Below, one piece after another: positions 4,698-61,420 of a DNA stretch of 64,000 nt. Under the pieces are notes generated by a model. It had not been told where the DNA came from, ran no database searches, and worked only from the letters and a program-made list of their open reading frames with translations. A program made the position numbers and the translations under genes. Origin of the DNA: Candidatus Amphirhobacter sp. (lineage in GTDB: Bacteria; Pseudomonadota; Gammaproteobacteria; Tethybacterales; Tethybacteraceae). The stretch lies in contig OZ244940.1 in assembly GCA_965222035.1 (NCBI GenBank), positions 899,015 to 963,014 of the forward strand. The letters are read 5' to 3'. Each line of letters begins with the position of its first letter. Within the stretch, counting starts at the first letter, position 1.

Positions 4698-4758
4698 ATT
4701 TCGAGCATTGATTTTAACCGAGCCGCATCATCAAAGATGTACAACTAAGAAAAGTCGG

Positions 4759-5253
4759 CTATTCCTTGGACTTCTCCAGTTTTACAAACATGCTTTTAAA
4801 CTCAGTAATAGGATACAGCGAATTTTTTGGCCGCGTGAGCTTGAATGAGGAATTAGTGGACTTGGCCATGCGTACCAGAGGAAGGTCGGTTAGAACATTT
4901 TTCGGATAGAGATTGAAATAAATCTCGTTGGGAGATATGCCTAGGACGCACAATATCTCGTATTTGGTGTCGTAGCGAACACCGTTGAACTGAAAATGTC
5001 CGTTCACATCTTCCGAGGCCATTTTGACCTCGAGTTTGCGCTCATTGACCATCACGTCAAATTCGCCAAGGCGGCTTCCGCTTGAATCCGCCTCCATGTG
5101 GTAATGCCTCGCAATCCACACAATAAAATCCTCGGCCAGCTGCCCCTTGTCAGTGGCCGACAGATTCTTCACATCCGCAAAGATGCCGCTGGCCCATTTG
5201 CCCGGTTTTTTATATTTCTGGATTAGATTCCCCAGATGTTCTTCAGGGCTCAT
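4759..5253 (-). CDS. hypothetical protein, putative PD-(D/E)xK-fold nuclease subunit (paralog B)
   Basis: 164 aa; AEDF..EFDVMV..LEVK; start ATG overlaps MTase stop (ATGA coupling). Confidence 0.55.
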   Translation of the reverse strand: MSPEEHLGNLIQKYKKPGKWASGIFADVKNLSATDKGQLAEDFIVWIARHYHMEADSSGSRLGEFDVMVNERKLEVKMASEDVNGHFQFNGVRYDTKYEILCVLGISPNEIYFNLYPKNVLTDLPLVRMAKSTNSSFKLTRPKNSLYPITEFKSMFVKLEKSKE

Positions 5254-12593: not shown

Positions 12594-12772
12594 AAGTTTA
12601 TTTGCGCTGAGAGCCTGGAAAAATACCTAGATTTAGTAAAATTCAGTGAAAACATATATTTGTTATTTGCGGTCGCAGCCTTCTTACTAGCCTGAAAACA
12701 TATAATTTTCTTTTTCAATCTATTGTTCTTCCAATAGAATCTGCGCCCCGAAAAACTACTATAACTCTAGGC

Positions 12773-14254
12773 ATGCTTTCCATCCAAGAAATAACCGAGA
12801 AGCAAATCGACCGTTGGTGCCAACAGTACGAAGGCCCCGGCCTTGAGTTCAAGGAAGCGAAGAACAATGTCAACAGGGAGGAGATGTCCAAATCTTGCTG
12901 CGCGTTAGCAAACACTGAAGGCGGGTACGTCATCCTCGGAATCACAAATGCTTTTCCGCACCAGGTGACAGGAACCAAAGCCTGCCCCAACCCGCCGAAA
13001 ATGGTTGAGCTAATCACTAGCAAGCTCAATCCTGCCATCCCACTTCAAGCTACGGAGGTGGAACACCGCGATGGCAGAGTGGTGGTGTTTGTTGTGGGCA
13101 AGCGACCCAAAGGCTCCGCTATCGAGTATCAACGGCAAGCCCTCGTCCGCGAAGGACAGCAAATACGGCCAATGTCGGTATCTGAAATAGGAGAAGTCCT
13201 TGCTGAGACCAAGCCTCATTGGCTGGAGGGACCTTGCTGCAGCAACCTGTCTCCAAGAGAGGTGAGGAATTTGCTCGACATCGAGCGTTTTTATGAATTG
13301 CAAGAAAAAGAGCAGCCTGCCCAGCTCTCAATGGTCTTGGATGATCTGAACGCCTTGAAAATGCTTGCGCCGGCAGGAGGTGATCGCTACACCATCAACC
13401 GCATGGGTGTCCTCTTGCTAGCAAAGAGCATCAGTGCCTGTGATCCTGGCCTGGGATCCAAGCGCATGCGTATTTTGCGCTTCAAGGGCGAGGGAGACAT
13501 ACACACCATCGGCTTTGACGAGACTTTCGACCGGGGTTACGCCACCGGCTTCGCTGACTTGGTCAAGATGGTGGTGGGCCAGCTGGATAATGAACATCCC
13601 GTTAGGGGAGCGCTGCGCCGTTATGATGAATTCGTACCCGAGGTAGCGGTGCGTGAATTACTCGCCAACGCTCTCATTCATCAGGATTTCCAGACTACCG
13701 GCCACCAGCTTTGGGTGCGCATCTACACCAATCGCATGGTAGTAGGAAACCCGGGCAAGCCGCTGGTGGCTATCGACCGCATGATAGACCGGCATGAAAC
13801 CCGCAACGAGATCTTGGTAGATGCCATGCGCACGCTGCGAATTTGCGAACGGGCCAGTACCGGCATCGATAAGGCTCTGGCAGCCATGGAAAAAGTGCGC
13901 GGCGCTCCAATTTCCTTCCAAACCGGCGACCAGGATGTAACTGAGGCGATAGTCTTCGCAACCCGGCCCTACGCCAAGCTCAGCCCTGGATTGAAAGCGT
14001 TGGCATGCTACCAGCATTGCGCGCTGCGTAGCTTACATAATGAACCCATGACCAACGTCTCCTTCCGGGAGAGGTTCGGACTGAACGCCAGCAAGCGGGA
14101 GGATGTCTCCCGGCTGTTCAAGAAGCTAGTGGATAGGAAACTCATCAAGCGCTCGATTATCGGCCATTCGAACAAGCACGCCAGCTACGTGCCGCAGTGG
14201 TTTGCTGAGGACGAAGACACTATCTTGGAAATGATCAGGAACGCAACAGATTAA
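12773..14254 (+). CDS. COG2865-type protein: AlbA_2 (Schlafen-like) N-terminal domain + HATPase_c_4 (RecG-C-like) domain, putative regulator/defence-associated
   Basis: ALANTEGGYVILGI (AlbA_2), ELLANALIHQDF and VGNPG (HATPase_c_4); gene and 180-bp upstream region are about 50% GC versus about 68% flanks. Confidence 0.7.
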   Translation: MLSIQEITEKQIDRWCQQYEGPGLEFKEAKNNVNREEMSKSCCALANTEGGYVILGITNAFPHQVTGTKACPNPPKMVELITSKLNPAIPLQATEVEHRDGRVVVFVVGKRPKGSAIEYQRQALVREGQQIRPMSVSEIGEVLAETKPHWLEGPCCSNLSPREVRNLLDIERFYELQEKEQPAQLSMVLDDLNALKMLAPAGGDRYTINRMGVLLLAKSISACDPGLGSKRMRILRFKGEGDIHTIGFDETFDRGYATGFADLVKMVVGQLDNEHPVRGALRRYDEFVPEVAVRELLANALIHQDFQTTGHQLWVRIYTNRMVVGNPGKPLVAIDRMIDRHETRNEILVDAMRTLRICERASTGIDKALAAMEKVRGAPISFQTGDQDVTEAIVFATRPYAKLSPGLKALACYQHCALRSLHNEPMTNVSFRERFGLNASKREDVSRLFKKLVDRKLIKRSIIGHSNKHASYVPQWFAEDEDTILEMIRNATD

Positions 14255-14275
14255 AATCAGCGCACGCAGCAAATC

Positions 14276-15172
14276 ATGTCCGCGCTCAGCAAACTGCACC
14301 GCAACGCCAGCCGCTTCGCCTGGCTGCTGATCATGCCCGCGGCGCTGTATATGTGCCTGATCGTCGCCTGGCCCCTGCTCGAGACCATCCGGCTGTCCTT
14401 CACCAACGCCGCCCTCGGCGGCGAGGAATACATCGGCGTCGAGAACTACGCCAAGCTGGCCGGCAGCGGGAAATTCCACGACATCGTGCTGCGCACCTTC
14501 TACTGGATGTTCCTGTCGGTCACCCTCAAGATCATCCTCGGCCTCGCCGGCGCCACCCTGCTCAATTCCAAGCTCAGGGGCGGCGGCATCTACCGGGTGC
14601 TGGTCATGCCGCCCTGGGTCGTCCCGATCGCCATCGGCTGCATCGGCTGGCTGTGGCTGTACCAAGGGCACTTCGGCCTCATCGCCGGCGTGCTGCAGCG
14701 CGTCGGCATCCTCGACGGGCCGTTCGAGTTCCTCGCCTATCGCAACAGCGCCTTCTACAGCGCCGTCATCACCGACGTGTGGATCGGCACCCCCTTCGTG
14801 ACCATCTACTTCCTCGCTGTCATCCAAGCCGTCCCCCGCGAACTGCACGAAGCCGCCTATCTCGACGGCGCCTCGCGCTGGTACCGCTTCCGCCGCGTGA
14901 CCATCCCCTACATCATGCCCGCGATCGTCGCCATGTCGCTGCTGTCGATCATCTGGACCTTCAACTCCTTCGAGATCATCTGGATCCTCACCGAAGGCGG
15001 GCCCCGCGGCGGGACCACCACCTTGATCATCGATACCTACAAGCGCGCCATCGCCAATTTCAAGTTCGGCCAGGGCGCCGCGCGCGCGACCATCATCGTA
15101 CTGCTGCTGACCGCCTTCTCGCTGCTGTACCTCGGGACCATGGCGCGCATCAACCGCCGCTACGCCCACTAG
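14276..15172 (+). CDS. carbohydrate ABC transporter permease (CUT1, MalF/UgpA-like)
   Basis: 6-TM permease with EAAxxDGA loop (HEAAYLDGAS). Confidence 0.85.
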   Translation: MSALSKLHRNASRFAWLLIMPAALYMCLIVAWPLLETIRLSFTNAALGGEEYIGVENYAKLAGSGKFHDIVLRTFYWMFLSVTLKIILGLAGATLLNSKLRGGGIYRVLVMPPWVVPIAIGCIGWLWLYQGHFGLIAGVLQRVGILDGPFEFLAYRNSAFYSAVITDVWIGTPFVTIYFLAVIQAVPRELHEAAYLDGASRWYRFRRVTIPYIMPAIVAMSLLSIIWTFNSFEIIWILTEGGPRGGTTTLIIDTYKRAIANFKFGQGAARATIIVLLLTAFSLLYLGTMARINRRYAH

Positions 15173-19631: not shown

Positions 19632-20093
19632 ATGCCCGGGCACAACGCCATCGCCATCGCGAACATCTATGTCAAGCTAGCGCAGGCTAGAAAGCACTAT
19701 CTGTCCAAGCTTCCCCTGATGAAGTTCATCTACTTCGCCCATGGCTGGACTTTGGGCTACACGGGAGAACCGCTCATTCGCGAGGACATCCTCGTCTGGA
19801 AATTCGGCCCGGCCATTCTCGAGGTCTATCGCGCCTTCGCGGAGAAAGGTTTTTACATCCAAACTCCGGCGCTGGACAAGAAAGGTGAGGAAATCACCTG
19901 CGAGCAGGATTTGAGCACCCAGGAGCAGGACATCATCATTAAGGTGTTCGATGATTACTCAACTTCAGACGCTATGGAGCTGGTTGGGATTACGCATGCC
20001 AAAGGCGCACCTTGGTCTACCAGCAAACAGAGAGGAGAATCTGTAATTTCTAACGAGATAATCAGGGATTATTACAAGGAGCGGTTGATTTAA
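19632..20093 (+). CDS. Panacea-domain (DUF4065, GepA/SocA-like) putative antitoxin, cassette 1
   Basis: LMKFIYFAHGWTLGYTGEPLIREDILVWKFGPAILEVYRAF matches DUF4065 core; about 50% GC. Confidence 0.7.
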   Translation: MPGHNAIAIANIYVKLAQARKHYLSKLPLMKFIYFAHGWTLGYTGEPLIREDILVWKFGPAILEVYRAFAEKGFYIQTPALDKKGEEITCEQDLSTQEQDIIIKVFDDYSTSDAMELVGITHAKGAPWSTSKQRGESVISNEIIRDYYKERLI

Positions 20094-20094
20094 C

Positions 20095-20538
20095 ATGTTC
20101 GATGAACAATTTAAGGGCCGGGAAGAAGAGTCCGAAAAGGCTCTTAGCCCGCAGGATTTGCTGCGCGAGTATCTTGCAGAGGAACTCTCCGAAGAGGCGG
20201 TGAAAATCAGAAAGGGACGCGAAAGCAAGGAGTTCATTTTCTCCTTGAGCGCCCGGATTATCCTAATCATCGCGGTGCTTGTCGTTGTCGGTATCCTATA
20301 TTGGCAACTATTCCAGGTCGCTGGTGCCTGGTCCGAACTCCGAAACGTCCACCCAGCAGTCCTGACAGCCTTTGTGTCGGGCATCATCATCAGTACCACA
20401 GCGCTGCTGGGCTTCTTGATCGCTGGAGTTTTCCGCAACGCTGACAAGGACAAGCCTGAGCATCCCATGCAGAACCTTCTCAGCAATCCGGGAATAGCCA
20501 GGATCTTCAACCTCAGCGTGCAAGCGCCTCTCAATTAG
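20095..20538 (+). CDS. small membrane protein (acidic N-terminal region + two C-terminal TM helices), putative PanT-like toxin partner, cassette 1
   Basis: ATG 1 nt after upstream stop; TM segments ILIIAVLVVVGILYW and VLTAFVSGIIISTTALLGFLIAGVF. Confidence 0.55.
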   Translation: MFDEQFKGREEESEKALSPQDLLREYLAEELSEEAVKIRKGRESKEFIFSLSARIILIIAVLVVVGILYWQLFQVAGAWSELRNVHPAVLTAFVSGIIISTTALLGFLIAGVFRNADKDKPEHPMQNLLSNPGIARIFNLSVQAPLN

Positions 20539-20595
20539 GCTAACGAGTAAGGCGCCTTAGCTGCCGCCTCGAGAATTAACATCGCCAGGACTGAT

Positions 20596-20769
20596 AGTTC
20601 ATTGTCCTGCCAGGACACTGACGAGGGTGATCTGGACCTCGCACTAGAGGAATAAATCAAGCAGCTGGAGCGGGAGGCCGACCGCCAGGAGTTCTTCCTC
20701 TACGTACTCCTCGGCTTCATGCTGGCCTGCGGCTGCGGCCTCTTCTTCGACGACTACCCACGCCGCTAA
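20596..20769 (+). pseudogene. decayed copy of the 56-aa TM peptide gene of cassette 2 (lost ATG, in-frame TAA at 20653)
   Basis: About 90% nucleotide identity to 21861-22031 but start codon mutated and premature stop. Confidence 0.4.
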
Positions 20770-20787
20770 GCGGCTGGCGGCCAAGCC

Positions 20788-20909
20788 GCGCCAGCGGCCA
20801 GGTCGTCAGCCTGCAGGAGTGGTGGGACCGGCTGGATGCCTGCAAATTGAGAGGCGGCTAAATCCCGCCATACTTGTTTTTCGGCAATTTAGGGCTATAA
20901 TAACCACAA
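20788..20909. repeat. duplicate of oxidoreductase 3' end + promoter (copy 2)
   Basis: See 19512-19631. Confidence 0.8.
20874..20901 (+). promoter_or_regulatory. sigma70-like promoter TTGTTT-N16-TATAAT, leaderless (8 nt to ATG)
   Basis: Conserved copy of 19596-19623. Confidence 0.5.
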
Positions 20910-21356
20910 ATGCCCGGTCACAAAGCCATCGCCATCGCGAACCTCTATGTTCAGCGTGCGCTAGACAACGGCCATGACTTGACCATCATGCCGCTGATGA
21001 AGTACATCTACTTCGCTCATGGCTGGACCCTGGGCTATACAGGCCAGCCGCTCATCCAGGAGGATATCATCTCTTGGAGGCTGGGTCCGGCAATCCCGGA
21101 GGTATACGACGCCTTCAAAGAAAAAGGCTTCATCATCGGCAGCCAGGTCGAGGGCGAGGAGTTCAACTGCGAACTCACCGACGAAGAGAAAAGAATCGTC
21201 TTCGGCGTGTTCGATGATTACTCACGCTTCAAGCCATGGACTCTCTCTAAAATCACCCATGCAAGGGAAACACCGTGGTATAAATATCGGCGGAAGAGAG
21301 GGTCTGTGATACCCAATGATGTGATTGAGCAATATTACAAGGAACGCAAGCAATAG
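20910..21356 (+). CDS. Panacea-domain (DUF4065) putative antitoxin, cassette 2
   Basis: Paralog of 19632-20093 (about 60% aa identity): LMKYIYFAHGWTLGYTGQPLIQEDIISWRLGPAIPEVYDAF. Confidence 0.7.
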   Translation: MPGHKAIAIANLYVQRALDNGHDLTIMPLMKYIYFAHGWTLGYTGQPLIQEDIISWRLGPAIPEVYDAFKEKGFIIGSQVEGEEFNCELTDEEKRIVFGVFDDYSRFKPWTLSKITHARETPWYKYRRKRGSVIPNDVIEQYYKERKQ

Positions 21357-21357
21357 C

Positions 21358-21813
21358 ATGGCCAAACAGCCTTCATTTTCCGGCAAGGAAACCGACGAGC
21401 AAGCCGGCAAGGAAAGTCTGGACATCCGCTCCTTTGTGTATGCTTACCTTGAGTCTCAATCATCCGAAGAGGCTGAGAAGATACGGAAAGGGCAAGAGCG
21501 CAAGGAGTTCATTTTCTCCCTGAGCGTCCGGTCCGCTGCCGCCGGTACGGCGCTTGCAGCTGTCTTGTTCCTGTATCTCCAGCTATACCGGATCATTGGT
21601 GACTGGTCCTCGCTTCAAGAGGGACACCCAGCAGTCCTGACAGCCTTGGTGTCGGGCATCATCATCAGCACCACAGCGCTGCTAGGCTTCCTAATCACTA
21701 GCACTTTTCGCAACGCTGATAAGGACAAGCCTGTGCATCCCATGCAGAACTTTCTCAGCAATCCTAACGTGAGTAGGATTTTCAACCTCAGCGTGCAGGC
21801 GCCGCTCGAATAA
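21358..21813 (+). CDS. small membrane protein (acidic N-terminus + 2 TM), putative toxin partner, cassette 2
   Basis: ATG 1 nt after stop of upstream gene; C-terminal half about 90% identical at nt level to cassette 1, N-terminal half diverged. Confidence 0.55.
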   Translation: MAKQPSFSGKETDEQAGKESLDIRSFVYAYLESQSSEEAEKIRKGQERKEFIFSLSVRSAAAGTALAAVLFLYLQLYRIIGDWSSLQEGHPAVLTALVSGIIISTTALLGFLITSTFRNADKDKPVHPMQNFLSNPNVSRIFNLSVQAPLE

Positions 21814-22067: not shown

Positions 22068-22532
22068 ATGGCCGACACTTTAACCCCGCAGCAACGCAGC
22101 CAGTTGATGGCGCGCATCCGCGGCAAGGACACCAAGATCGAGCTGCTCGTCCGCCGCGCGCTGCACGGCCTGAAGTTCCGCTATCAACTGCACGACCGCC
22201 GCTTGCCCGGTCGACCCGACATGGTCCTGCCCAAATACCGGGCGGTGATTTTCATCCACGGCTGCTTCTGGCACGGCCACGACTGCGCGTTGCATCGCCC
22301 GCCCTCTTCCAACAAACTATACTGGCGCGACAAGATCACGCGCAATCAGGAACGGGACGCCGCGGCGCTCAAGCAACTGCGCCGCGACGGCTGGCGCTGC
22401 CTGGTGATCTGGGAATGCGCCCTGCGCGGACCGCAGCGGCGCGATTTCGACCGCAGCATCGCCGCGATCGACAGCTGGCTGCGCGGCGACGCGCGCTCCA
22501 AGACCATCCGGGGCAAGACCCAGCGCAAATAA
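22068..22532 (+). CDS. vsr: very short patch repair endonuclease
   Basis: FIHGCFWHGH and WRCLVIWECAL; near full-length match to the Vsr family. Confidence 0.85.
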   Translation: MADTLTPQQRSQLMARIRGKDTKIELLVRRALHGLKFRYQLHDRRLPGRPDMVLPKYRAVIFIHGCFWHGHDCALHRPPSSNKLYWRDKITRNQERDAAALKQLRRDGWRCLVIWECALRGPQRRDFDRSIAAIDSWLRGDARSKTIRGKTQRK

Positions 22533-30543: not shown

Positions 30544-31523
30544 CCCAGGCAGTCCTGCCGGACGAGGCCGGCCTGCGCGACCAGCATCGCGGGCATGAAG
30601 CTGCGCGCCGCCACCAGGTCATCGCCGCTGCGGCGCAGCAGGTCGTTGGACCGCGGCCGCCCCTTGGCGTCGTACAACTCCAGCGCCTCGCCGCCGGCGC
30701 CGTTGTTGAGCTTCGCGAAGACCGTGCCCTCGGCCACCGTCTTGAAGTTGAACAATTGCGGCAGGTTGGCCGGAAAACTTATGTCCGCCCGGCTGTTGCC
30801 AAAACAGATGCTGTGCTCCGGCTTGACCTTCAGGCACCCGCACAGGCGGTGATACTCGCCCGCCGCCGCCGGCACTTGCGCGGTGGCATCGACATAATCA
30901 AGGAAATCCAGCCCCAGGCCGATGCCCTCTTCGCTGCCGGGCAAGCCGCATTCGAGCGTGACCGCTGGATGACGCCGGCCGAAGGCCTCCATGAGCGTCC
31001 CCAGCCTCAGCTCGGTGCCAATGGTCCGGCCGGTGAAAGCCCCCGCCCAGCCGCGGGCGTCGACGAAGCCCTCGCCCTGCATGCACATCGCATAGCAGGG
31101 ATTGAGCCCGTTGTTGTTGTGCAGGTCGATTACCAAGCGCAGCGGCCGGTCCGCGTACTCCTCATAGACCGCATATAGATCGTCCAGCAGCGGCTGATTG
31201 GGCTGGGCGCCCCAGATGCGGTTGAAGTCGACCTGGCTCTTGAGCTGGCGCTCGCCGCGCGCGGCCGCCATCGGATTTGCCAGGAGAAAGACGAAGGCGC
31301 ACTGCGGCTGACGGGCCCCCAGCTGCTGCAGCCAGCGGCGCGCGATCTCCCAGCCGCTGGTCTCGTTGCCGTGCAGCAGCGCGCTGACAAAGACAATCTC
31401 GTCCCCCGTCCCCGGGACCTCCAGCAGCGCCGGGCCATCGAGATAGGCCAGCAGCCGCTCCGCCGGCTGCGCCAGCAGCTCGGCTGGAGGCGGGCTGAGG
31501 CGCCGCAGGCTCACAAGGACCAA
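30510..31523 (-). CDS. succinylglutamate desuccinylase/aspartoacylase (AstE/AspA) family zinc hydrolase
   Basis: LLHGNETSGWE zinc-binding motif typical of AstE_AspA family. Confidence 0.7.
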   Translation of the reverse strand: MVLVSLRRLSPPPAELLAQPAERLLAYLDGPALLEVPGTGDEIVFVSALLHGNETSGWEIARRWLQQLGARQPQCAFVFLLANPMAAARGERQLKSQVDFNRIWGAQPNQPLLDDLYAVYEEYADRPLRLVIDLHNNNGLNPCYAMCMQGEGFVDARGWAGAFTGRTIGTELRLGTLMEAFGRRHPAVTLECGLPGSEEGIGLGLDFLDYVDATAQVPAAAGEYHRLCGCLKVKPEHSICFGNSRADISFPANLPQLFNFKTVAEGTVFAKLNNGAGGEALELYDAKGRPRSNDLLRRSGDDLVAARSFMPAMLVAQAGLVRQDCLGYVLEPWDAAR

Positions 31524-32965
31524 CGGTGCACCGGCATGCCCTGCAGCTGCCGGCGCCAGTAACTGCCCGTCAGCCGCCGGATGTTCGCTGAGCCCGCGCC
31601 GTGCGCCTGGACATAGCGCCGCTGCCAGGTCGCGCCGTTGATGCCCGTCGCGATCCGCTGCTCCATGATGTCCAGGTATTCGAGCTCGCGGGGCTCAAGC
31701 CTGAGCTGCTTGAGCTCGCGCCGCGCCAGGGGGAGCAGCTGGTCCAGCAGCAGCTTCTTGACGCTGCGACGGCGCCCGTCGAGCCAGGTCACCTTGGCGT
31801 CCAGGCCGTGCAAGGCGCAAGCGTAGAAATTCGCGCGCGCCTGCGCGCAGGGCAGCTGCCGCTCCAGCTGCGGGCCCTTCAGGCCGGTCCCCAGCTCGCG
31901 TACCAGGCCGCGCATCAGCCCGATGAACAAGGCGATGTTCGCGCACATGTCCGCGCTGCTCGGGCTCGAGGACATCACCCGGTGCTCGATGCGCAGCGCC
32001 GGCGCGCCGTCCTCCTCGAAGTCCAGCACCGGGCGGTTCCAGCGCCAGATGGTGCCGTTGTGCAAACGCAAGTGCGGCAGGCCGTGGCGCGCCTTGCTCA
32101 CTTCGGCGAGCATCACCGCGAAGTACTTGGCGTTGTCCTCATACAGCTCGATCAAGCTGTCGGAGACATAGCTGTGCCCGAAGAAATCGTTGGCGCGCTC
32201 ATCCTGCAGGCCGGGCGCGAGAAACCGCGGTCGCAGGATCTGCTCGAACAGCGGGACGCGGGTCTCGGCCCACAGGTTGCGCCCGAGAAAGAACGGCGAG
32301 TTCGCCGTGGCCGCGGCGATCGGTCCGGCCAGCAGCTGGGCCGCGTTGTAATACTGGACGGCCTGCTTCGCCGGCGGCTGCAGATGCAGCTGCTGCGAAG
32401 TTGTGACCGCTTCCATCAGCACCGTCGACAAGCCCAGCTCCAGGCCGTCGTTCTCCGGAATCAGGATCGAGCTGAAGCGCCCGCCCCGCCAGCGCACGAA
32501 GCGCTCCAGCAAAGCGTGATAGCGCTTGTCGCGGCTCGTCATGGCCGTGCCCAGGTCCGCCGGCGAGATGGTCGGCAGAATGCCCGCCATGACCAGATGG
32601 ACCGACAGAATCTCGGCGACGTTGAAGGCCCGCTGCATGAAATCGACGAAGTCCTGCCGCATGCGCAGGATGAAGCCCGGGGACAGCTCGGTCCGGTGGG
32701 AGTTGTACTCGACGTTGAAGGCCGCCAGCTCCGTCGTCGCCTGCGGACTGTCTAGCTGCTTGAGGAACTTGGCGTTGATCGAGGCCGGCAGGAAAGAATG
32801 GTCCGCCAGGCAGAACTCCACTTCCTGGCCGACATACTGCTTGCGGCTGGAAAACCGTCCTTCGCGTTCCCAGCGCCTGATGGTGGCGGTCTCCCGCAGC
32901 AGCTTGGCCGCGAAGGCCTTCTCATCGGCCTTGCTGTAGCGGCTCTTGGTGGTCTCCTCGCCCAT
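31511..32965 (-). CDS. glutamate--cysteine ligase family 2 (GCS2/carboxylate-amine ligase-like) protein
   Basis: 484 aa, GCS2-type fold by sequence pattern; overlaps downstream AstE-like gene by 13 nt. Confidence 0.55.
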   Translation of the reverse strand: MGEETTKSRYSKADEKAFAAKLLRETATIRRWEREGRFSSRKQYVGQEVEFCLADHSFLPASINAKFLKQLDSPQATTELAAFNVEYNSHRTELSPGFILRMRQDFVDFMQRAFNVAEILSVHLVMAGILPTISPADLGTAMTSRDKRYHALLERFVRWRGGRFSSILIPENDGLELGLSTVLMEAVTTSQQLHLQPPAKQAVQYYNAAQLLAGPIAAATANSPFFLGRNLWAETRVPLFEQILRPRFLAPGLQDERANDFFGHSYVSDSLIELYEDNAKYFAVMLAEVSKARHGLPHLRLHNGTIWRWNRPVLDFEEDGAPALRIEHRVMSSSPSSADMCANIALFIGLMRGLVRELGTGLKGPQLERQLPCAQARANFYACALHGLDAKVTWLDGRRRSVKKLLLDQLLPLARRELKQLRLEPRELEYLDIMEQRIATGINGATWQRRYVQAHGAGSANIRRLTGSYWRRQLQGMPVHRWSL

Positions 32966-39538: not shown

Positions 39539-41350
39539 ATGAACGAGAAGAAAGACCAGGACGATCCAAGTTTCAGCGACGAGCTGAAGAAGACCTTCGA
39601 AAGCGCCAAGGAACGCCTGCGGGATGTCCCGGAGAGCGTCAAGCAAGTCGCGGACAAAACAGGCGAACTTGCCAAGGAAGGCTTCGACAGCCTGAAGCAA
39701 AAGACGACCGAGGTAGCCGCCCAGGCTAAGGAAAGCGTCCCGGATGTCCCTGAAAGCGTGAAGCAGGTCGCGGACAAGACAGGCGAGCTTGCCAAGGAAG
39801 GCTTGAGCAAAATCAGCGATGCCGCTTCTGAGACTGGAGCGCGAGCCAAGGAGAGCGTCCAGGAGCTCGGATCAGACCTGCAGCAGGCCGCGGGCAAAAC
39901 GGGAGAACTCGCCAAGGAGGGCTTCGACAGCTTGAAACACAAAACGGCTGAGACCGCCGCTCAAGCCAAAGAGGGAGTACATAAGCTAGGTGAGACAGCC
40001 GCCGAAACCGCCGCCCAGGCCAAGGAACGCGTCCAGGAGCTCGGTTCAGACCTGCAGCAGGCCGCGGGCAAGACAGGCGAGATCGCCAAGGAAGGCTTCG
40101 GCAGCTTGAAACACAAGACGGCTGCGACCATCGCTCAAGCCAAAGAAGGAGTACATAAACTGGGCGAGACAGCCGGTGAAACCGCCGCCCAGGCCAAGGA
40201 ACGCGCCCAGGAGCTCGGTTCAGACCTGCAGCAGGCCGCGGGCAAGACAGGCGAAATCGCCAAGGAAGGGATGCATAAGCTGGGTGAGACAGCTGCCGAA
40301 GCTAGTGCTCGAGCCAAAGAACGAGCCCAGGAGCTCGGCTCAGACCTGCAGCAGGCCGCAGGCAAAACAGGCGAGATCGCCAAGGAAGGCTACGACAGTC
40401 TGAAGCATAAAACAGCCGACACAGCTGCCCAAGCCCAGGAGCGCATGCATGATGTCGGCGAAGGCGTGAAGCGAGCCGCAAGCGAAACGGGCACCTCCGC
40501 CAAAGAGGGCATGAACAAGGTGGGAGAAGCCGCCGCCCGAGCGCAGAAAAACGTACGGCAAAAGCTGCTTGACATCCTATCCGCACCGCTTCGTTTGTTG
40601 TCTGCCACGAAGACAGCTGCCGGCGAGGCTGGCGCCTCCGTCAAGGAAGGCATCAGCAAGGTTGGGGAAGCAGCTGCTCAAGCAAAGGAGCGCATGCGAT
40701 GGAAGTTGTATGGCATCATAGCCATACCGCTGCTGTTCTTCATGACGATGGCCATCGTATTCGCGAACCCTTGGGCGTGGATAGCACTCGGTGTCATGAT
40801 CATCGGGTTGCTGTCCTGGTGGCACATAAGGAAGAATGTCAGCAAAGAGGAGTTGAAACACGCATGGGTGAGCACGCGAGAAATATTGTACCGCCTCATT
40901 ATGTTTCTTTCATCGGCCTTCGTTATCGCCATCATGTGGAATTCAGGTGTGGCACCGGCATGGGCAATGGCGATACCCGAAAAACTAAATTCCATCCCTC
41001 TTCTGTTCTTGTTTGTAGTAGCTGTGATGCTGCTAGTTGCTGCGCTCTTCCACCAATACATCATGCGCCCGGCACGCTTGTTCTGGCAGAAAGCAGTGGC
41101 TTGGTTAGGAGCTAACGGGCCTGTGATCATAATCTTATTGTCGCTGGTGGTCTTGGTTGCTTTGCTATTGCAGTACTTTTTTACTGACGCTGAAATTAGC
41201 TGGCAAGGTTTTGGGACATGGTTGACCGAGCCGCTCCGGTTCGGAACATTTATGCTAATTGGCTGCTTCTTGATCCTGCTCTGGATGCTTTTCATCCAGC
41301 TTATCCTGCGCCCGCTGCGCCGCCTCAGGCACAAAGCAAAGGCGCAGTAA
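39539..41350 (+). CDS. repeat-rich membrane protein: about 390-aa amphipathic KTGE(L/I)AKEG repeat region (DUF883/ElaB/LEA-like) + 6-TM C-terminal domain
   Basis: RBS GAGAAGGAC; 3.7 tandem 60-aa repeats; TM segment ..NPWAWIALGVMIIGLL resembles DUF883 C-terminal anchor. Confidence 0.6.
   Translation: MNEKKDQDDPSFSDELKKTFESAKERLRDVPESVKQVADKTGELAKEGFDSLKQKTTEVAAQAKESVPDVPESVKQVADKTGELAKEGLSKISDAASETGARAKESVQELGSDLQQAAGKTGELAKEGFDSLKHKTAETAAQAKEGVHKLGETAAETAAQAKERVQELGSDLQQAAGKTGEIAKEGFGSLKHKTAATIAQAKEGVHKLGETAGETAAQAKERAQELGSDLQQAAGKTGEIAKEGMHKLGETAAEASARAKERAQELGSDLQQAAGKTGEIAKEGYDSLKHKTADTAAQAQERMHDVGEGVKRAASETGTSAKEGMNKVGEAAARAQKNVRQKLLDILSAPLRLLSATKTAAGEAGASVKEGISKVGEAAAQAKERMRWKLYGIIAIPLLFFMTMAIVFANPWAWIALGVMIIGLLSWWHIRKNVSKEELKHAWVSTREILYRLIMFLSSAFVIAIMWNSGVAPAWAMAIPEKLNSIPLLFLFVVAVMLLVAALFHQYIMRPARLFWQKAVAWLGANGPVIIILLSLVVLVALLLQYFFTDAEISWQGFGTWLTEPLRFGTFMLIGCFLILLWMLFIQLILRPLRRLRHKAKAQ
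39856..40450. repeat. tandem 180-bp coding repeats (about 3.7 copies, about 90% identity; third copy lacks a 60-bp sub-unit)
   Basis: gagctcgg(a/t)tcagacctgcagcaggccgcgggcaa(a/g)ac(g/a)gg(a/c)ga... recurring at 39856, 40036, 40216, 40336. Confidence 0.85.
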
Positions 41351-46029: not shown

Positions 46030-47526
46030 TTATTCATCGCCCTGCGCGGCATATGCGAGGGCGGCCTGGACGGCTCGGCTCCACCGCTCCAGGCGCTGCG
46101 CGCGGACCTCGGCGGCCAGCGCCGGGGTGAAGCTGCTCCCCTCGACGCGCAGCTTGCCCATCTCCGCCATGGAGCCGTATTCCCCGGCCTGCAGCCCGGC
46201 CAGGAAAGCCGCTCCCGCCGCGGTGGTCTCGATGTGGCTCGGCCGGCTGACCTCCTGGTCGAGCACGTCGGCCAGGTACTGCGCGAACCAGTCGTTCGCA
46301 GCCATGCCGCCGTCGATGCGCACCGCCTGCGGCGCCAGGCCCTCGGCGCGATAGGCCTCGAGCAGGTCGTGGCTTTGATAGGCGACCGACGCCAGCGTCG
46401 CATGCGCGAGCGTCGCGCGGTCAGTGTCCAGCGTCATGCCGACGATGGTCCCGCGCGCCGCCGGGTTCCAATGCGGAGCGCCCAGGCCGGTGAAGGCGGG
46501 TACCAGGTACACCTGCGCATCGGCCGGGGCCTGGGCCGCGAGCTCGGCGGTCGCGGCGGCATTGTCGATGACGCCGATCTTGTCGCGCAGCCACTGGACC
46601 GCGGCGCCGGCGATGAAGATCGAGCCCTCGACCGCATAGGCGCTGCGGCCGCCCACCCGGTAGCCGACGGTCCCCAGCAGCCCGCTGCCCGGAATCAGGG
46701 GCTCGGCCCCGCCTTGGACGATGACGAAGCAGCCGGTCCCGTAGGTCGACTTGGCCTCGCCCGGCTCGAGGCAGTTCTGGCCGATGGCGGCCGCCTGCTG
46801 GTCGCCGGCGATGCCGCCGATCGGGATGCGCAGGTCGCCGATCTCGGCGACGCCGTAGTCGGAGGCGTTGTCCTTGACCTCGGGCAGGCAGGCGCGCGGG
46901 ACGCCATGCAGCTTGAGCAGCTCGTCATCCCATGCCATGCTCGCGAGGTCGAGCAACTGGGTGCGGCTGGCGTTGGTGACGTCAGAGGCGAAGACTTTGC
47001 CGCCGGTGAGCATCCACACCAAGTAGGCGTCGATGGTTCCGGCGAGGACCTTGCCCTGCTCGGCTTGCTCCATGGAGTTGGTCTCACGCAGCAGCCAGGC
47101 GATCTTGGTCGCGGAGAAATACGGGTCGAGCACCAGGCCGGTCTTGCGCCGCACCAGCTCCAGGGCGCCGTCGCGCTCGAGCTCGGCGCAGCGGTCCGCG
47201 GTGCGACGGTCCTGCCAGACGATCGCGCGGTGCAGCGGCTTGCCGGTCTCCTTATCCCACAGCAGCACGGTCTCGCGCTGGTTGGTGATGCCGAGGGCGA
47301 CGGCCTGGCCGCCTTGGGCCGTACAGTAATCAGCGGCCTCGCGCAGCACCCGCTGGGCATCGCGCCAGATGTCGGTGGCGTCGTGCTCGACCCAGCCCTC
47401 CTGCGGATAATGCTGCGGGAGTTCGTAGCGACTGATGTGCTCCGGCGCGAGCGTGTCGGCGGCGAAGGCGATGGCCCGGGTGCTGGTCGTGCCCTGGTCG
47501 AGCGCGATGATGTATTTCTTGCCCAT
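46030..47526 (-). CDS. glpK: glycerol kinase
   Basis: FGGY kinase family, N-terminal YIIALDQGTTSTRA, 498 aa. Confidence 0.9.
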   Translation of the reverse strand: MGKKYIIALDQGTTSTRAIAFAADTLAPEHISRYELPQHYPQEGWVEHDATDIWRDAQRVLREAADYCTAQGGQAVALGITNQRETVLLWDKETGKPLHRAIVWQDRRTADRCAELERDGALELVRRKTGLVLDPYFSATKIAWLLRETNSMEQAEQGKVLAGTIDAYLVWMLTGGKVFASDVTNASRTQLLDLASMAWDDELLKLHGVPRACLPEVKDNASDYGVAEIGDLRIPIGGIAGDQQAAAIGQNCLEPGEAKSTYGTGCFVIVQGGAEPLIPGSGLLGTVGYRVGGRSAYAVEGSIFIAGAAVQWLRDKIGVIDNAAATAELAAQAPADAQVYLVPAFTGLGAPHWNPAARGTIVGMTLDTDRATLAHATLASVAYQSHDLLEAYRAEGLAPQAVRIDGGMAANDWFAQYLADVLDQEVSRPSHIETTAAGAAFLAGLQAGEYGSMAEMGKLRVEGSSFTPALAAEVRAQRLERWSRAVQAALAYAAQGDE

Positions 47527-53178: not shown

Positions 53179-57738
<4,560 letters not shown>

Positions 57739-57983
57739 ATCGCCTAGTTGAATCGGTTATTTTAACCAATTAATGGCGGAGGCAGGATGCGGAGCTGCCG
57801 CCCTCCTCTACAAACCTAAGGAAGCTTAGTAAATGACCAGGATGATGTGGCTGCTAGGTTCCGTATGGAGATTTGTGGTTGCTGGCATATGTTCTGGACA
57901 GCAGACTCTTTAGCACCTTTTGCGCTTGCATGGGCTGGGAACAGGCCTCCTTGATGGCCAGGCATCTAGGCTACGGAGCGATG

Positions 57984-58667
57984 CTAACTCTGCGGCTTGT
58001 CCTTTCCCCCTTGATGATCGTCGAGGTATTTACGAGCTTTGTTGATATAGGACTTGCCGTTGCGGAACTGCCCTAGGCCGGTATTGCAGCTTTCGCAGAT
58101 GAAGTCGCGGAAATCGCCGCTCTTATGATCATGGTCGCGGACGGCACGGGATGTCACCTGTGCAATGAAACCTTGCCCGCACAGCGGGCAGGCAAAAATA
58201 GAACCTGGCTTGGGCCGGCGATGCTCAGCCGCCTTGGCTTGTTCACGATTTAACGGCTGGCCCCGGCGCTCTTTGCGGCACTTCTTGCAGCTAGCGCGCC
58301 GCACTACACCAGTCTTGTTGTAGCGATCGCATGCGAATTCACTGACTGGCAACAGGCAGTGACAGTGTTTGCAGATTTTTTGGCTGTGAGCGTCTCCGGT
58401 GGCATGCAGGCCGAACGACTCCACCTCCCGATACGGCACCAGCCACCGCCTGCCATCTACCAGGTGAATTTGAAAGCTACCGAGGTCGCGTACGAAGTAT
58501 TCGAGAATGCCTACGGCGTTGCGGTCGAAGCCTTTATTGTCCTGCTTCGGCTGACTGTTGTCGTCGAGTACCAGCCCCTTGCCGGCGAAGCAAAACACCC
58601 ACGGAACGTGGAGTTCGTTGTTCAGAACCTCGCTGGATTCGCTCAAGTCGCAGCCAGAATGGGACAA
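57984..58667 (-). CDS. recombination endonuclease VII (phage T4 gp49-like) domain protein with extra N-terminal region and CxxC zinc ribbon
   Basis: C-terminal CPLCG...RDHDHKSGDFRDFICESCNTGLG matches Endo VII H-N-H-like core; no in-frame ATG (TTG start at 58667, uncertain); about 55% GC. Confidence 0.6.
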   Translation of the reverse strand: MSHSGCDLSESSEVLNNELHVPWVFCFAGKGLVLDDNSQPKQDNKGFDRNAVGILEYFVRDLGSFQIHLVDGRRWLVPYREVESFGLHATGDAHSQKICKHCHCLLPVSEFACDRYNKTGVVRRASCKKCRKERRGQPLNREQAKAAEHRRPKPGSIFACPLCGQGFIAQVTSRAVRDHDHKSGDFRDFICESCNTGLGQFRNGKSYINKARKYLDDHQGGKDKPQS

Positions 58668-58679
58668 GGCACAGGAATG

Positions 58680-59090
58680 TTAGATGATCTTGATGGTGTG
58701 AACCTCGCCGTCGTCGTCGGTGTAACCGAGGACGCTCATTTTGCCGCAGGTCGCGCGGCTGGGAGGTTTGTCGGTCTTGTTCTCCTTCATCCAGCCGCGT
58801 ACGTGCCGCTCCCATTCCTCTGCCGGTATGGGATCGAAGGGTTCGTACGGACGGTTGTACTCATCTTCCTCGGTCCATTCAGGCGTGGTCCAGGCGAGCA
58901 GCAGCTTATGCAGGGCCTCCAACTGATACTGCTGCTCGGCGATGGCAGCCGCCAACTTCTCGACCTGGACCATCACGTCGGTCTGGGTGGGAGGAAGGGG
59001 GGCAGGCTCCGCTGGAGCATCCGCCTTCTTGCCCTTGGCAGATTTAGGATTGGATTTGGGCTTGGCCCGTGTGGTCGGTGAAGACGCCAT
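58680..59090 (-). CDS. small basic protein, paralog 1 of tandem family (Lys/Pro/Ala-rich N-tail, coiled coil, conserved C-terminal EEW..RGWMK..DG module)
   Basis: ATG 59090 lies 8 nt downstream of a TATAAT; most diverged of the three. Confidence 0.5.
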   Translation of the reverse strand: MASSPTTRAKPKSNPKSAKGKKADAPAEPAPLPPTQTDVMVQVEKLAAAIAEQQYQLEALHKLLLAWTTPEWTEEDEYNRPYEPFDPIPAEEWERHVRGWMKENKTDKPPSRATCGKMSVLGYTDDDGEVHTIKII

Positions 59091-59119
59091 TGCGACCAAT
59101 TATACCTTATGCATACTGC

Positions 59120-59551
59120 TCACAGGTCAACTGGAATAACCCATTCCTTGCCGTCCTCGTCGATATACCTGATGTCGCGGTCGCGAGCACAGCCAGGCTC
59201 GCGGGCCGGAGGCTCGGTGGTCTCGTGGTCCTTCATCCAGCCACGCAGGTGCTTCGCCCATTCTTCCGGCGTCATCCCGACGGAGGGTTCATAGGGCATG
59301 AAATTATATGCCTCATTTTCCCGCTTCGAATACTCCCGCTCGGTCCAGAAAGCCACTAGATGGCGAATGTAAGCGAGTTGTTTGTGCTGCGTCGCAATCG
59401 TCGCGCGCAGCTGCTCCACTAATTGCAGCGCCTCGGCCCTGGTCGGCAGGTTGGGCTCGGGCGCCGGCTTGGGCTGAGCCTGCTTGCGCTTGGCGGGCTT
59501 GGTCCCGGATTTAGTCCGGGGCTTAGACCGCGCAATCGAGGGAGTAGCCAT
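59120..59551 (-). CDS. small basic protein, paralog 2
   Basis: ATG 59551 8 nt downstream of TATAAT (59560-59565); about 85% identical to paralog 3 over the C-terminal 100 aa. Confidence 0.5.
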   Translation of the reverse strand: MATPSIARSKPRTKSGTKPAKRKQAQPKPAPEPNLPTRAEALQLVEQLRATIATQHKQLAYIRHLVAFWTEREYSKRENEAYNFMPYEPSVGMTPEEWAKHLRGWMKDHETTEPPAREPGCARDRDIRYIDEDGKEWVIPVDL

Positions 59552-59580
59552 TGCGACCAATTATACCTTATGCGGGCCGC

Positions 59581-59982
59581 TCAGTCGCAAACCGGAATAA
59601 CCCATTCCTTGCCGTCCTCATCGACATACCTGATGCGGCGGTCGCGAGCACAGCCAGGCTCGCGGGCCGGAGGCTTAGTGGTTTGGTGGTACTTCATCCA
59701 GCCGCGCAGGTGCTTGGCCCATTCCTCCGGCGTCAACCCGCCGAAGGGCTCATAGGGCATGAAGCTGTATGCCTCATTTTCCCGCTTCGAATACTCTCGC
59801 TCGGTCCAGAAAGCCACTAGATGGCGAATGTAAGCGAGTTGTTTGTGCTGCGCCGCAATCGTCGCTCGCAGCTGCTCCACCAACTGCAGCGCCTCGGCCC
59901 TGGTCGGCAGGTTGGGATCGGGAGGCGGCTTGGGCTGCGCCTGCTTGCGCTTGGGCTTTTTCTGCTGAGCAGCCGGAGACAT
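59581..59982 (-). CDS. small basic protein, paralog 3
   Basis: ATG 8 nt after ALDH stop; [14 protein letters not shown]-tail. Confidence 0.5.
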
Positions 59983-59989
59983 GGCTTGC

Positions 59990-61420
59990 TCAGGCCGCCG
60001 GCGGTACCCCGTGGAAGACGATCGTCTTCTCCTCGGTCATTTCCAGGCAAGTCGAACGCATGCCCTCCTTGCCGATGCCGCTGCCCTTGAGGCCGCCGTA
60101 GGGCATGAAATCAGCGCGCCACTGGGTCGACCAGTTGATGTGGACGTTGCCCGATTCGCAATCGCGCGCGAAGCGCAGGGCGCTGGCGTAGTCCCGGGTG
60201 TGGACCGAGGCGCTGAGGCCGTAGTCCGAATCGTTGGCGAGCGCCAGGGCCTCGTCGATGTTGGACGCCGGCGTCGCCGCCACCACCGGGCCGAAGACCT
60301 CGCCGCACATCACCTTCATGTCGGGCTTGGCGTCGGCGAGGATGGTCGGGGCGTAGACGCTGCGGTCGCGGCTGCCGCCGGTCACCACCCGGGCGCCGGC
60401 CGCCTGGGCCTCGTCGACCCAGGCCTCGACGCGCTCGGCCTCCTTCTCCTCGATCATCGCCGCGAGCTTGGTGCCCTCCTCCTTGGGCGAGCCCACCTTG
60501 ATCTTCTCGACCTCGGCCTTGGCCGCGTCGAGGAAATCGCCGTAGATGGAGCGGTCGACGATGGCGCGCTGCAGCGAGATGCACACCTGCCCGGCGTTGG
60601 CGTAGCCGCCGTAGGCGACGTGCGCGGCCACCTGCTCCAGGTCCGCGTCCGGCAGCACCACCATGGGGCTGTTCGAGCCCAGCTCGAGCGACAGCTTCTT
60701 GAGGCCGGCGACGTTCGCGAGCCGCTGCCCGACTTCCATGCTGCCGGTGAAGCTGATCTTGCGCGGGCGCGGGTCGGATGCGAGCGCCTCGCCGATTTTC
60801 GCGCCGGAGCCGGTGATCACCTGCAGCTGGTCGCCGTCGTAGCCCGCCTCATGGAACAGCTCGGTGAGCATGATGGCCGACAGCGGCGTGACCGAGGCCG
60901 GCTTGAGGATGACCGCGTTGCCAGTCGTCAGCGCCGGCGCGACCTTGTGCAGCGCGAGCATCAGCGGGAAGTTGAACGGCGTGATCGCGACGACGATGCC
61001 GCAGGGTACCCGCATGGTCATGCCGATCTTGCCGGCGCCGTTCGGGGCCGCCTCCAGCGGCAGCTGCTCGCCGCGGACCATCGCGCCCTCGAAGGCGCTG
61101 AGGCGAATGATCTCGACCGAGCGGGAGGCCTCGGTGCGGGCCTCGGCGAGCGGCTTGCCGTTCTCGGCGGTGATCGCCTCGGCGAAGTCCTCGACGCGCT
61201 CTTGCAGCAATTCGGCCGCCTTGAGGGTCGCGAGATAGCGCTTGTGCGCGCCCATCTGGCGCTGCTGGACCACGCCCTTGGCGGCGGCGGCGAGGGCGCG
61301 CTCGGCGTCTTTAGGCTCGGCGGCGGGGACCTCGTCGAAGACCTCGCCATCATAAGGATGGGCGACCGCCAGGGCTTGGTTGCCCTCCTGCCATTTGCCG
61401 GCGATGTAGTTCTTGCGCAT
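59990..61420 (-). CDS. NAD(P)-dependent aldehyde dehydrogenase
   Basis: ALDH family full-length (476 aa), catalytic Cys region GQVCIS, Glu motif LELGSNSP. Confidence 0.85.

Follow-up and report, generated by a model that had tools for sequence, protein, structure and literature searches.

How does a cell tolerate what looks like a functional type II restriction enzyme when no methyltransferase gene lies beside it? To our knowledge, a type II restriction enzyme deprived of its methyltransferase is assumed to kill the cell, and each of the rare solitary cases has been given its own explanation. The question is raised by a 2.25-kb islet (positions 57739–59989) in a 64,000-nucleotide (nt) stretch of the genome of Candidatus Amphirhobacter sp. 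(GenBank assembly GCA_965222035.1, contig OZ244940.1, positions 899,015–963,014), hereafter the window. The islet fills the interval between an aldehyde dehydrogenase gene (ALDH) and gltB and holds four co-oriented genes on the minus strand: an open reading frame (ORF) for a small protein, A1 (59581–59982, 133 amino acids (aa)), two further small genes, A2 (59120–59551, 143 aa counted from its ATG) and B (58680–59090, 136 aa counted from its ATG), and a gene for a nuclease of 227 aa (57984–58667). Almost certainly, these four genes constitute a horizontally acquired module that sits at one fixed position in the chromosome of a narrow, uncultured lineage; the nuclease is an intact homolog of the Hpy99I family in which four of the five base contacts have been replaced, and B, preceded by two to four A paralogs, sits in the slot of the methyltransferase.

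The nuclease was assigned to the Hpy99I family of ββα-Me (His-Me finger, or EndoVII-type) enzymes with a profile made from the window nuclease and five close relatives. Hpy99I (PDB 3fc3/3gox) was its sole sequence match in the PDB (E = 5e-34), nuclease residues 45–219 of 227 aligning with chain residues 25–199 of 3fc3_A, and T4 endonuclease VII was absent from the PDB matches at E ≤ 1. The nuclease also matched the PADLOC model REase_II (4.3e-29). In Pfam, it matched Endonuclease_7 (PF02945; 7.5e-13) at residues 159–216 and His_Me_b4a2 (6.3e-6) at residues 89–133, while the PHROG "endonuclease VII" families matched the C-terminal 60–130 residues. A preliminary description of the locus had called the gene endonuclease VII-like, which is right as far as the Endonuclease_7 domain goes, but the T4 gp49-type resolvase that it proposed does not fit a protein that aligns with Hpy99I over its whole length. 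The "extra N-terminal domain and zinc ribbon" of that description are present, but correspond to the first β4α2 repeat and, probably, the normal SH3-like barrel of the Hpy99I fold, plus about 30 extra residues at the N-terminus.

Hpy99I, which recognizes CGWCG, is built from an SH3-like barrel and two β4α2 repeats, each with two CXXC zinc motifs; its catalytic residues are Asp148, His149 and Asn165, and its bases are contacted by Asn83, Gln84, Arg94, Asp162 and Arg170 (PMC2699513). When the islet nuclease was aligned with it, all eight zinc cysteines were found to be kept and invariant (C99/C102, C127/C130, C160/C163 and C191/C194), and the catalytic residues were likewise present and invariant (D178, H179 and N195). 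The equivalents of the base-contact residues are D114, R115, R124, E192 and Q200, so that only the Arg94 equivalent is kept and the other four are changed; all seven sequences of this clade carry the same replacements. In the barrel, the alignment with Hpy99I spans native residues 15–53, and the SH3_17 family (PF18350) was not reported for this clade or for the sister clade described below. Compared with Hpy99I, the nuclease has about 30 additional N-terminal residues and a basic C-terminal tail. An AlphaFold2 (AF2) model with strands at residues 24–78 was poor, with a predicted local distance difference test (pLDDT) score of 42, and was set aside; our structural reading follows instead from the alignment with the sequence of crystallized Hpy99I.

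Relatives of the islet were collected from seven metagenomic loci, L001–L007 (ENA, Logan assemblies). Among them, the 227-aa frame of the nuclease is conserved from residue 1, and it is intact in two relatives where the gene caller had missed the gene. A start codon, which the preliminary description could not recognize, is provided by the TTG at 58667; the same codon is TTG in L003–L007 and GTG in L001 and L002. In every locus, this start lies 12 nt past the stop codon of B. The gene has no Shine–Dalgarno sequence. The ratio of nonsynonymous to synonymous substitution rates (dN/dS) is 0.13–0.28 for the nuclease overall, 0.14–0.19 in the two catalytic repeats, and 0.31–0.43 in the barrel and N-terminal extension. 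Judged from its sequence, the gene is functional and encodes a full-length homolog of the Hpy99I-family type II restriction endonucleases, representing a new clade of this structurally solved family.

A profile search returned more than 1,300 members of the Hpy99I family, including proteins annotated as "Hpy99I family type II restriction endonuclease". The nearest outgroup is a sister clade of proteins of 201–215 aa, 40–46% identical to the islet nuclease, which keep all five base-contact residues of Hpy99I. We examined eight outgroup loci, comprising L008–L013 and L015 from the sister clade and L014 from Desulfonema limicola, a canonical SH3_17 member. In all eight, a gene for an N6_N4_Mtase of 242–283 aa with an SPPY motif is located directly upstream of the nuclease gene, overlapping its start. 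In the clade studied here, this position is occupied by B, whose stop codon precedes the nuclease start by 12 nt. No methyltransferase was found among the islet genes by inspection of their ORFs and Pfam matches, and neither a homolog nor a tblastn remnant of the sister-clade methyltransferase was detected in the 64 kb of the window or, in six relatives, within 10 kb to either side. The possibility that the small proteins are decayed methyltransferase fragments was ruled out by an hhalign probability of 0.1% and the lack of a tblastn remnant. Neither the rest of the window nor the restriction–modification loci of the sister clade yielded further paralogs of the small proteins. The sister clade retains the classical methyltransferase–nuclease operon, and offers a clean evolutionary comparison of before and after.

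The association between the small genes and the nuclease holds throughout the material. All seven fetched loci, like the window, have one B gene adjacent to an intact nuclease gene, and in six of the seven (L001 and L003–L007) A-type copies precede this pair. L001, L003, L006 and L007 have two to four full A-type genes following ALDH. In L005 there are three, and the reading frame of the first is joined to that of a shortened ALDH gene; L004 has at least two, with an assembly gap upstream and the gltB side not visible. In each contig that reaches so far, gltB comes after the nuclease. L002 is a 2.8-kb contig containing only B, the nuclease and the beginning of the next gene. The site lies between ALDH and gltB in every locus in which both flanks are visible. 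The two families thus co-occur outside the window, and strains differ in how many units they carry (two to four A, one B), which answers two points raised in the preliminary description. Neither the small-protein family nor this nuclease clade was found without the other, and searches with each family showed both to be missing from the GTDB representative genomes, IMG/VR and the JGI metagenomes.

The islet is compositionally foreign, because both its GC content and its GC content at third codon positions (GC3) fall below those of its flanks. The GC content of 57739–59989 is 0.581, compared to 0.673 for gltB (53179–57738, minus strand), the downstream flank, and 0.692 for ALDH (59990–61420, minus strand; an ORF with a Pfam Aldedh match at 1.3e-147). 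This bears out the earlier report of a low-GC region of about 2 kb between the two genes; the span given there, 57984–59982, has a GC content of 0.589. GC3 is 0.64–0.69 for the nuclease and 0.75–0.77 for B, against 0.89–0.94 for the flanks. In the direction of transcription, the order is ALDH, A1, A2, B, nuclease, a gap of 245 nt, and gltB. The gap (57739–57983, minus strand), a non-coding stretch from the nuclease stop codon to the gltB start, is the downstream edge of the islet and contains the GC minimum of the region, about 0.50; a consensus scan called neither a terminator nor a promoter in it. A repeat search and inspection of the window genes revealed no inverted repeats flanking the islet and no integrase, and the tRNA genes of the window are all distant from it. 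A transposon or integrative element was ruled out on these grounds, since there are no terminal inverted repeats, no integrase and no tRNA target.

Three tandem 461-bp repeats had originally been described in the islet. Tandem Repeats Finder (TRF) detected a 461-bp period with 1.9 copies and 90% identity at 59086–59954, corresponding to the two A units, whose genes are 90% identical. The third unit, B, is diverged and has a spacing of 446. It shares about 38% protein identity with the A type, and 68–70% DNA identity over the best 97 nt. By this comparison, B is an old, diverged paralog of the A-type genes.

The divergence of the islet genes exceeds that of their neighbors several-fold. Among strains, the flanking genes are 96–99% identical at the amino acid level with a dS of 0.06–0.22, whereas the nuclease is 77–89% identical with a dS of 0.35–0.76 and a dN about ten-fold above that of the flanks. 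Part of the dS gap may come from the extreme GC3 constraint on the flanking genes. The dN gap is real and is typical of defense loci.

The surroundings of the islet vary among the relatives. Between the nuclease and gltB in L005, and in this one strain only, there is a gene for a 798-aa protein of the N6_Mtase/MmeI_Mtase/Eco57I type (12103–14499, minus strand of that contig), which runs opposite to the nuclease gene. This insertion indicates that the junction between ALDH and gltB accepts other defense cargo, like a hot spot. The other loci lack this methyltransferase, and this rules it out as the nuclease's general partner. At the opposite end of the same array (L005, 8696–9511), ALDH was called with 445 aa and the first A copy was called as a 194-aa ORF, its frame open from ALDH-like C-terminal sequence; a local rearrangement or a frameshift may account for this upstream edge. 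In L001 (20–2986), and also in L003–L007 beyond DsbD (just past the right end of the window), there are two or three tandem paralogous HNH_2 genes encoding proteins of 319–331 aa. In these paralogs, the C-terminal part matches HNH_2 (Pfam, 5e-6; PADLOC HNH, 8e-12), and the N-terminal part has a very weak EVE-like match (E = 0.03). Judging from these matches, the HNH_2 paralogs, about 4–5 kb from the islet, may be modification-dependent nucleases.

The small genes are real and under purifying selection: dN/dS is 0.11–0.45 for A and 0.08–0.18 for B and, because it is low for A, B and the nuclease, none of the islet genes can be regarded as a chance ORF. Both A2 and B start at ATG, the codon that gene callers also chose in the relatives; a TTG three codons upstream is TTA in two relatives. 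A1 forms the upstream edge of the array; its start lies 7 nt beyond the stop codon of ALDH, its tail is shortened and it lacks a TATAAT of its own. An orthologous first copy with a short tail, starting with ATG or GTG, is present in L001, L003, L006 and L007. A2 has the full lysine-rich tail.

The layout of the small proteins was derived from an AF2 model, the paralog alignment and charge analysis. The proteins begin with a tail rich in K, R, P and A, which has a net charge of +5 to +8 and is predicted to be disordered; then come a long helix of 46 residues, a short strand, another helix, a loop and a hairpin. A simple heptad count gave no clear-cut pattern of a canonical leucine zipper in the long helix. 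The second helix bears an invariant E-E-W-x-[KR]-H-x-R-G-W-M-K motif, the loop reads T-x-x-P-P, and the terminal β-hairpin is characterized by Y-x-D-[ED]-x-G...I. The AF2 model of A2 has a mean pLDDT of 72, rising above 80 in both helices and the hairpin, with residues 1–39 disordered, helices at 41–86 and 98–111, and the hairpin at 129–145. B, which is single-copy and directly upstream of the nuclease in all loci, combines a basic K/P/A tail with an acidic body; by our own count of charged residues, its net charge of −4 is made up of about +6 in the tail and about −10 in the body. The bodies of the A proteins range from −5 to +1.

Most segments of the A proteins are constrained, with ratios of nonsynonymous to synonymous polymorphism (pN/pS) of 0.05–0.2. 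Hypervariable patches occur at two places, namely the long helix in its C-terminal half, where pN/pS reaches 0.4–0.7, and the strand before the hairpin, where it is about 1.0 and up to 1.06. The variants of these patches assort independently among copies and strains, indicating recombination between A copies.

None of the small proteins had a match at or above threshold in Pfam, PHROGs, PADLOC or NCBIfam. RP-C_N (E = 0.006, 16.9 bits against a cutoff of 24.4 bits), DUF4303 and others were dropped as sub-threshold, compositional matches. A PDB sequence profile search gave a single match, mS58, at E = 0.59, and Foldseek found no fold match in the PDB or in the viral structures of BFVD. These searches uphold the earlier view that the paralogs lie outside known families. 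An exhaustive HMMER search over 1.84 billion representatives yielded only two 50%-identity clusters, one of the A type and one of the B type (with P0015 as the B-type representative), and a word search over 5.8 billion sequences yielded nine clusters of small proteins. From these searches, we regard the small proteins as a new orphan protein family. The remaining weak HMMER matches were long repeat proteins (P0017–P0022, 565–1082 aa) with five to seven or more units of about 75 aa, with the consensus "AReIKKWMEERxTTKPPS..EEEKkLG.AL..IR..PY.."; some of them are fused to a superfamily 2 (SF2) helicase (P0022) or an HNH-like N-terminus (P0018). No Pfam family covers this repeat unit. The 21-residue central motif of the small proteins aligned with the first 21 residues of the unit over 21 columns, with an hhalign probability of 84.5%. 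The central helix–loop might thus be a module found with DNA enzymes, which is a weak lead and does not amount to family membership.

The array carries a regular set of putative expression signals. Every unit except the first has a perfect TATAAT 8 nt before its ATG and no Shine–Dalgarno sequence at a usable distance; in the window, these boxes lie at 59560–59565 in the spacer between A1 and A2 (59552–59580) and at 59099–59104 in the spacer between A2 and B (59091–59119), both on the minus strand. A 15-nt core of the spacer, GCATAAGGTATAATT, is identical in 19 of 19 inter-unit spacers from eight loci, and the adjacent codons vary. Elsewhere in the window, a TAnnnT box 7–12 nt before the ATG, without a Shine–Dalgarno sequence, is found at the genes at 12773, 31511–32965 (minus strand), 41546 and 46030–47526 (minus strand). 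Such start regions suggest that the host frequently uses leaderless mRNAs and, because other window genes have this arrangement, a leaderless-mRNA promoter before each small gene except the first is plausible. Probably, many small proteins and little nuclease are made. Low production of the nuclease is predicted because its gene starts with TTG or GTG, lacks a Shine–Dalgarno sequence and begins 12 nt after the stop codon of B.

An active enzyme of this family would find its targets in the host. With 401 copies in the window, CGWCG shows no avoidance, and all 32 sites of the 5-bp format of the family, XY[W/S]Y'X', are present, with 16–953 occurrences each. An absence of host sites therefore fails as an explanation for the 5-bp format, each of the 32 sites occurring at least 16 times. 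The chromosome offers thousands of targets unless the specificity is much longer or the substrate is not plain duplex DNA, and protection or control is required. When the islet was excluded, GASTC was the most under-represented short palindrome of the window (20 observed, 51 expected, z = −4.4); the ratio for GAWTC was 0.70, and ACCGGT was observed twice against 12.8 expected. These depletions may be the trace of a GANTC-specific system or of CcrM-type methylation in the lineage. The depletion of GASTC was considered as a clue to specificity but not taken as evidence, since about 20 sites remain and GANTC depletion has other known causes.

What, then, keeps the nuclease in check? The intact nuclease, the lost linked methyltransferase, the orphan array found in its slot, the remodeled base contacts and an expression layout in favor of the small proteins agree best with a module whose small proteins restrain or direct the nuclease. 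We tentatively favor a model, to which we give somewhat less than an even chance, in which the small proteins restrain the nuclease within a module derived from a restriction–modification system. The small proteins would take over the role of the methyltransferase by keeping the nuclease harmless to the host. With a TATAAT promoter for each small gene except the first, they would be made in excess, while the nuclease would be translated sparingly, coupled to B. They would probably dimerize via the long helix, and their acidic body would bind the basic DNA-binding face of the nuclease in the style of immunity proteins or antitoxins; alternatively, they might sit on the DNA via the H1-like tail. 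If the small proteins ran short or were titrated, as might happen when a phage infects or the locus is lost, DNA would be cut by the nuclease, and the net effect would be the conversion of a restriction–modification system into a module resembling toxin–antitoxin or abortive infection systems. The charge complementarity between the acidic body of B (about −10) and nuclease residues 96–152 (+11) would fit this model and was counted in its favor. The hypervariable mosaic patches of A would fit an interaction surface under diversification. A more specific version is doubtful: a restriction enzyme without methylation self-protection, held by tandem, diversifying, DNA-tethered inhibitors in the slot of the methyltransferase, which would make the small proteins a new host-encoded inhibitor family.

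A number of observations weigh against restraint by the small proteins. The body of A1 is net positive, so the charge argument fails for some copies. The tie between the small proteins and the nuclease is one of linkage, and as all loci belong to one lineage, their co-occurrence counts as one evolutionary event, not eight. Neither an immunity or antitoxin fold (Im, SUKH, ribbon–helix–helix (RHH), helix–turn–helix (HTH) or AbrB) nor a recognizable DNA-binding fold was found in the small proteins in Pfam, PHROGs, NCBIfam, PADLOC, the PDB, or by Foldseek against the PDB and BFVD. The consensus promoter scan did not call the spacers, there being no good −35 element at 16–18 nt. The changed base contacts could reflect an unusual substrate, such as modified DNA, a DNA structure or a rare long site, that would need no protection. 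Finally, an unlinked methyltransferase may lie outside the 64 kb of genome in view, and even this window contains another type II methyltransferase gene (5250–6287) and vsr.

The last point leads to the reading that the system is an ordinary one whose parts have been separated, with an unlinked methyltransferase providing protection, the nuclease acting as a re-specified type II enzyme, and the small proteins being accessory (controller-like) or unrelated DNA-binding travelers. Solitary restriction genes with distant methyltransferases are documented, with 57 predicted among 272 solitary cases (PMC3488263), and the intact active site and purifying selection of the nuclease agree with this reading, as do the 64-kb limit of the inspectable genome and the presence in it of another type II methyltransferase and vsr. 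However, the methyltransferase at 5250–6287 adjoins two restriction-enzyme genes of its own, no homolog of the sister-clade methyltransferase turned up in the window or, in six relatives, up to 10 kb on either side, and the exclusive link of an orphan family to the nuclease, its position in the slot and its amplified, diversifying array are left unaccounted for. We consider a separated system rather unlikely, but the main and a serious rival to restraint by the small proteins. The changed base contacts, invariant as they are, point in another direction, namely that the substrate has changed and protection has become needless, so that the nuclease would be a modification-dependent (type IV-like) enzyme, a structure-specific one or a rare cutter like PacI, and the small proteins independent of it. 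PacI provides a precedent as a methyltransferase-less His-Me enzyme in a host without its sites (PMC5714182; PMC3488263); the relatives carry two or three HNH_2 nucleases 4–5 kb away, and GASTC and ACCGGT are under-represented in the window. Yet the compact Hpy99I dimer contacts 5 bp only (PMC2699513), every 5-bp site of the family format occurs at least 16 times in the 64 kb, GASTC itself about 20 times, and neither the strict linkage nor the replacement in the slot is accounted for, making this a distinctly improbable solution.

The small proteins might instead be DNA-binding partners of the H1 or H-NS kind, with a basic tail, an oligomerizing helix and a small C-terminal domain. They would either coat the DNA of the host, leaving naked incoming DNA as the only DNA to be cut, or recruit and target the nuclease and lend it specificity. 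The disordered K/P/A-rich tail (+5 to +8) with its adjoining 46-residue helix, the one strong −10 box per gene in the array, suggestive of high dosage, and the resemblance of the 21-residue motif to the repeat unit of proteins that also carry an SF2 helicase or an HNH-like part (84.5%) would all suit such proteins, and coating by nucleoid proteins is a published explanation for solitary restriction enzymes (PMC3488263). Against this, no match to Histone_HNS or another nucleoid-protein family was obtained in Pfam at E ≤ 1 and the likeness to H1 is confined to the tail and its composition; the match of the motif is short and carries no functional assignment, the body of B is acidic, and dimers of the Hpy99I type recognize DNA unaided (PMC2699513). 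We therefore regard such partners as unlikely. The suggestion in the preliminary description that the islet is a phage remnant, with a T4 gp49-like resolvase and phage small proteins, drew on the Endonuclease_7 and PHROG "endonuclease VII" matches in the C-terminal part of the nuclease and on a GC content below that of the host. It is hardly credible now: the full-length match is to Hpy99I, including both zinc repeats and the putative barrel, IMG/VR has no relatives of either family, no PHROG matches the small proteins, there is no integrase, tRNA target or flanking repeat, and the sister clade consists of chromosomal methyltransferase–nuclease operons. That description had itself noted the lack of other phage genes, and none were found nearby among the window genes. 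Its other label, a new DNA-targeting module, is still the best broad description, and can be sharpened to a nuclease derived from a restriction–modification system with the methyltransferase slot held by an orphan array.

The islet is not alone in its setting, as small islets of foreign DNA make the window a mosaic. A separate low-GC islet (4200–6287, minus strand; GC content about 0.49–0.53) holds a complete type II restriction–modification system. Its methyltransferase (5250–6287) matches PADLOC MTase_II (4.9e-53) and has EPSAGEG and GNPPF motifs, with no Pfam match at 1e-3. It is accompanied by tandem paralogous restriction-enzyme genes (4759–5253 and 4200–4697) encoding proteins of 164 and 165 aa that match REase_II at 1e-10 and 6.5e-8, respectively, another case of tandem duplication within a defense islet. 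A tandemly duplicated two-gene pair is found in a low-GC region at 19632–21813 (plus strand): a SocA/Panacea-domain antitoxin gene (19632–20093; Pfam, 1.6e-16) and its paralog (20910–21356) are each followed by a gene for a 147–162-aa protein with a hydrophobic segment (20095–20538 and 21325–21813). The vsr gene (22068–22532, plus strand; Pfam Vsr, 2.3e-33) has no adjacent cytosine-5 methyltransferase, and its presence implies 5-methylcytosine somewhere in the genome. Two more low-GC stretches carry defense-like genes, both on the plus strand: one (12773–14254) encodes a Schlafen AlbA_2 (5e-14) and HATPase_c_4 (1e-13) protein, the other (39539–41350) a product of 603 aa whose ZorA/MotA-like matches are weak (9e-6).

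The interest of the islet lies in a functional-looking member of a structurally solved family whose methyltransferase slot has been replaced by an amplified orphan family; a nuclease with an orphan array in place of its methyltransferase was not found in PADLOC or in the literature searched. If the small proteins do control the nuclease, they would represent a class of host-encoded protein inhibitors of a restriction enzyme, and the islet would illustrate a concrete route from restriction–modification to toxin–antitoxin or abortive infection; a re-specified enzyme of the Hpy99I type might also be of practical interest. Should the host be protected by an unlinked methyltransferase, the finding shrinks to a new clade of restriction enzymes and an orphan array without an assigned role.

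Several known systems share features with the islet. T4 endonuclease VII (gp49) has the ββα-Me motif of Endonuclease_7 in common with the nuclease, over a core of about 60 residues only; the architecture and context are those of a restriction enzyme. The colicin and pyocin DNase–immunity pairs, such as E7/Im7 and E9/Im9, also combine a His-Me finger nuclease with a small, tightly linked protein, and the neutralization proposed here would be analogous. Arrays of diversified paralogous immunity genes, like the array of the islet, are common in polymorphic toxin systems. In colicins and pyocins, however, the nuclease is the C-terminal domain of a secreted toxin and the immunity gene lies downstream, whereas the islet nuclease is a free-standing 227-aa protein without a secretion or translocation domain and the small genes are upstream; the Im and SUKH proteins have no sequence or fold similarity to the small proteins. 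Type II toxin–antitoxin systems share with it a small gene that immediately precedes the gene for a potentially toxic enzyme, the tight spacing and the apparent excess of the upstream product, and, like the islet, they are found as foreign islets among other defense and toxin–antitoxin genes. They differ in that the islet has no RHH, HTH or AbrB fold, has three to five "antitoxin" paralogs with −10 boxes, and would use a restriction-enzyme homolog as the toxin.

Among restriction enzymes, PacI of Pseudomonas alcaligenes is likewise a solitary ββα-Me restriction-type nuclease, without a neighboring methyltransferase in its high-GC host. Protection comes there from the lack of its AT-rich 8-bp site in the host, whereas the window holds every 5-bp site of the family format; in addition, PacI belongs to another His-Me group, without the catalytic His, and no small-protein array has been described for it. 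The closest counterpart is the Hpy99I system of H. pylori, which shares with the islet full-length homology of the nuclease, four CXXC zinc motifs, the catalytic Asp-His...Asn, probably the N-terminal barrel region, a similar size, and the position of the nuclease as the last gene of a short, co-oriented operon. The islet differs from it in having no methyltransferase gene and orphan small-protein genes in the upstream slot, and in a nuclease with an extended N-terminus, a basic tail and a TTG or GTG start, in which the base contacts have changed by N83D, Q84R, D162E and R170Q, while the methyltransferase-linked sister clade keeps all five.

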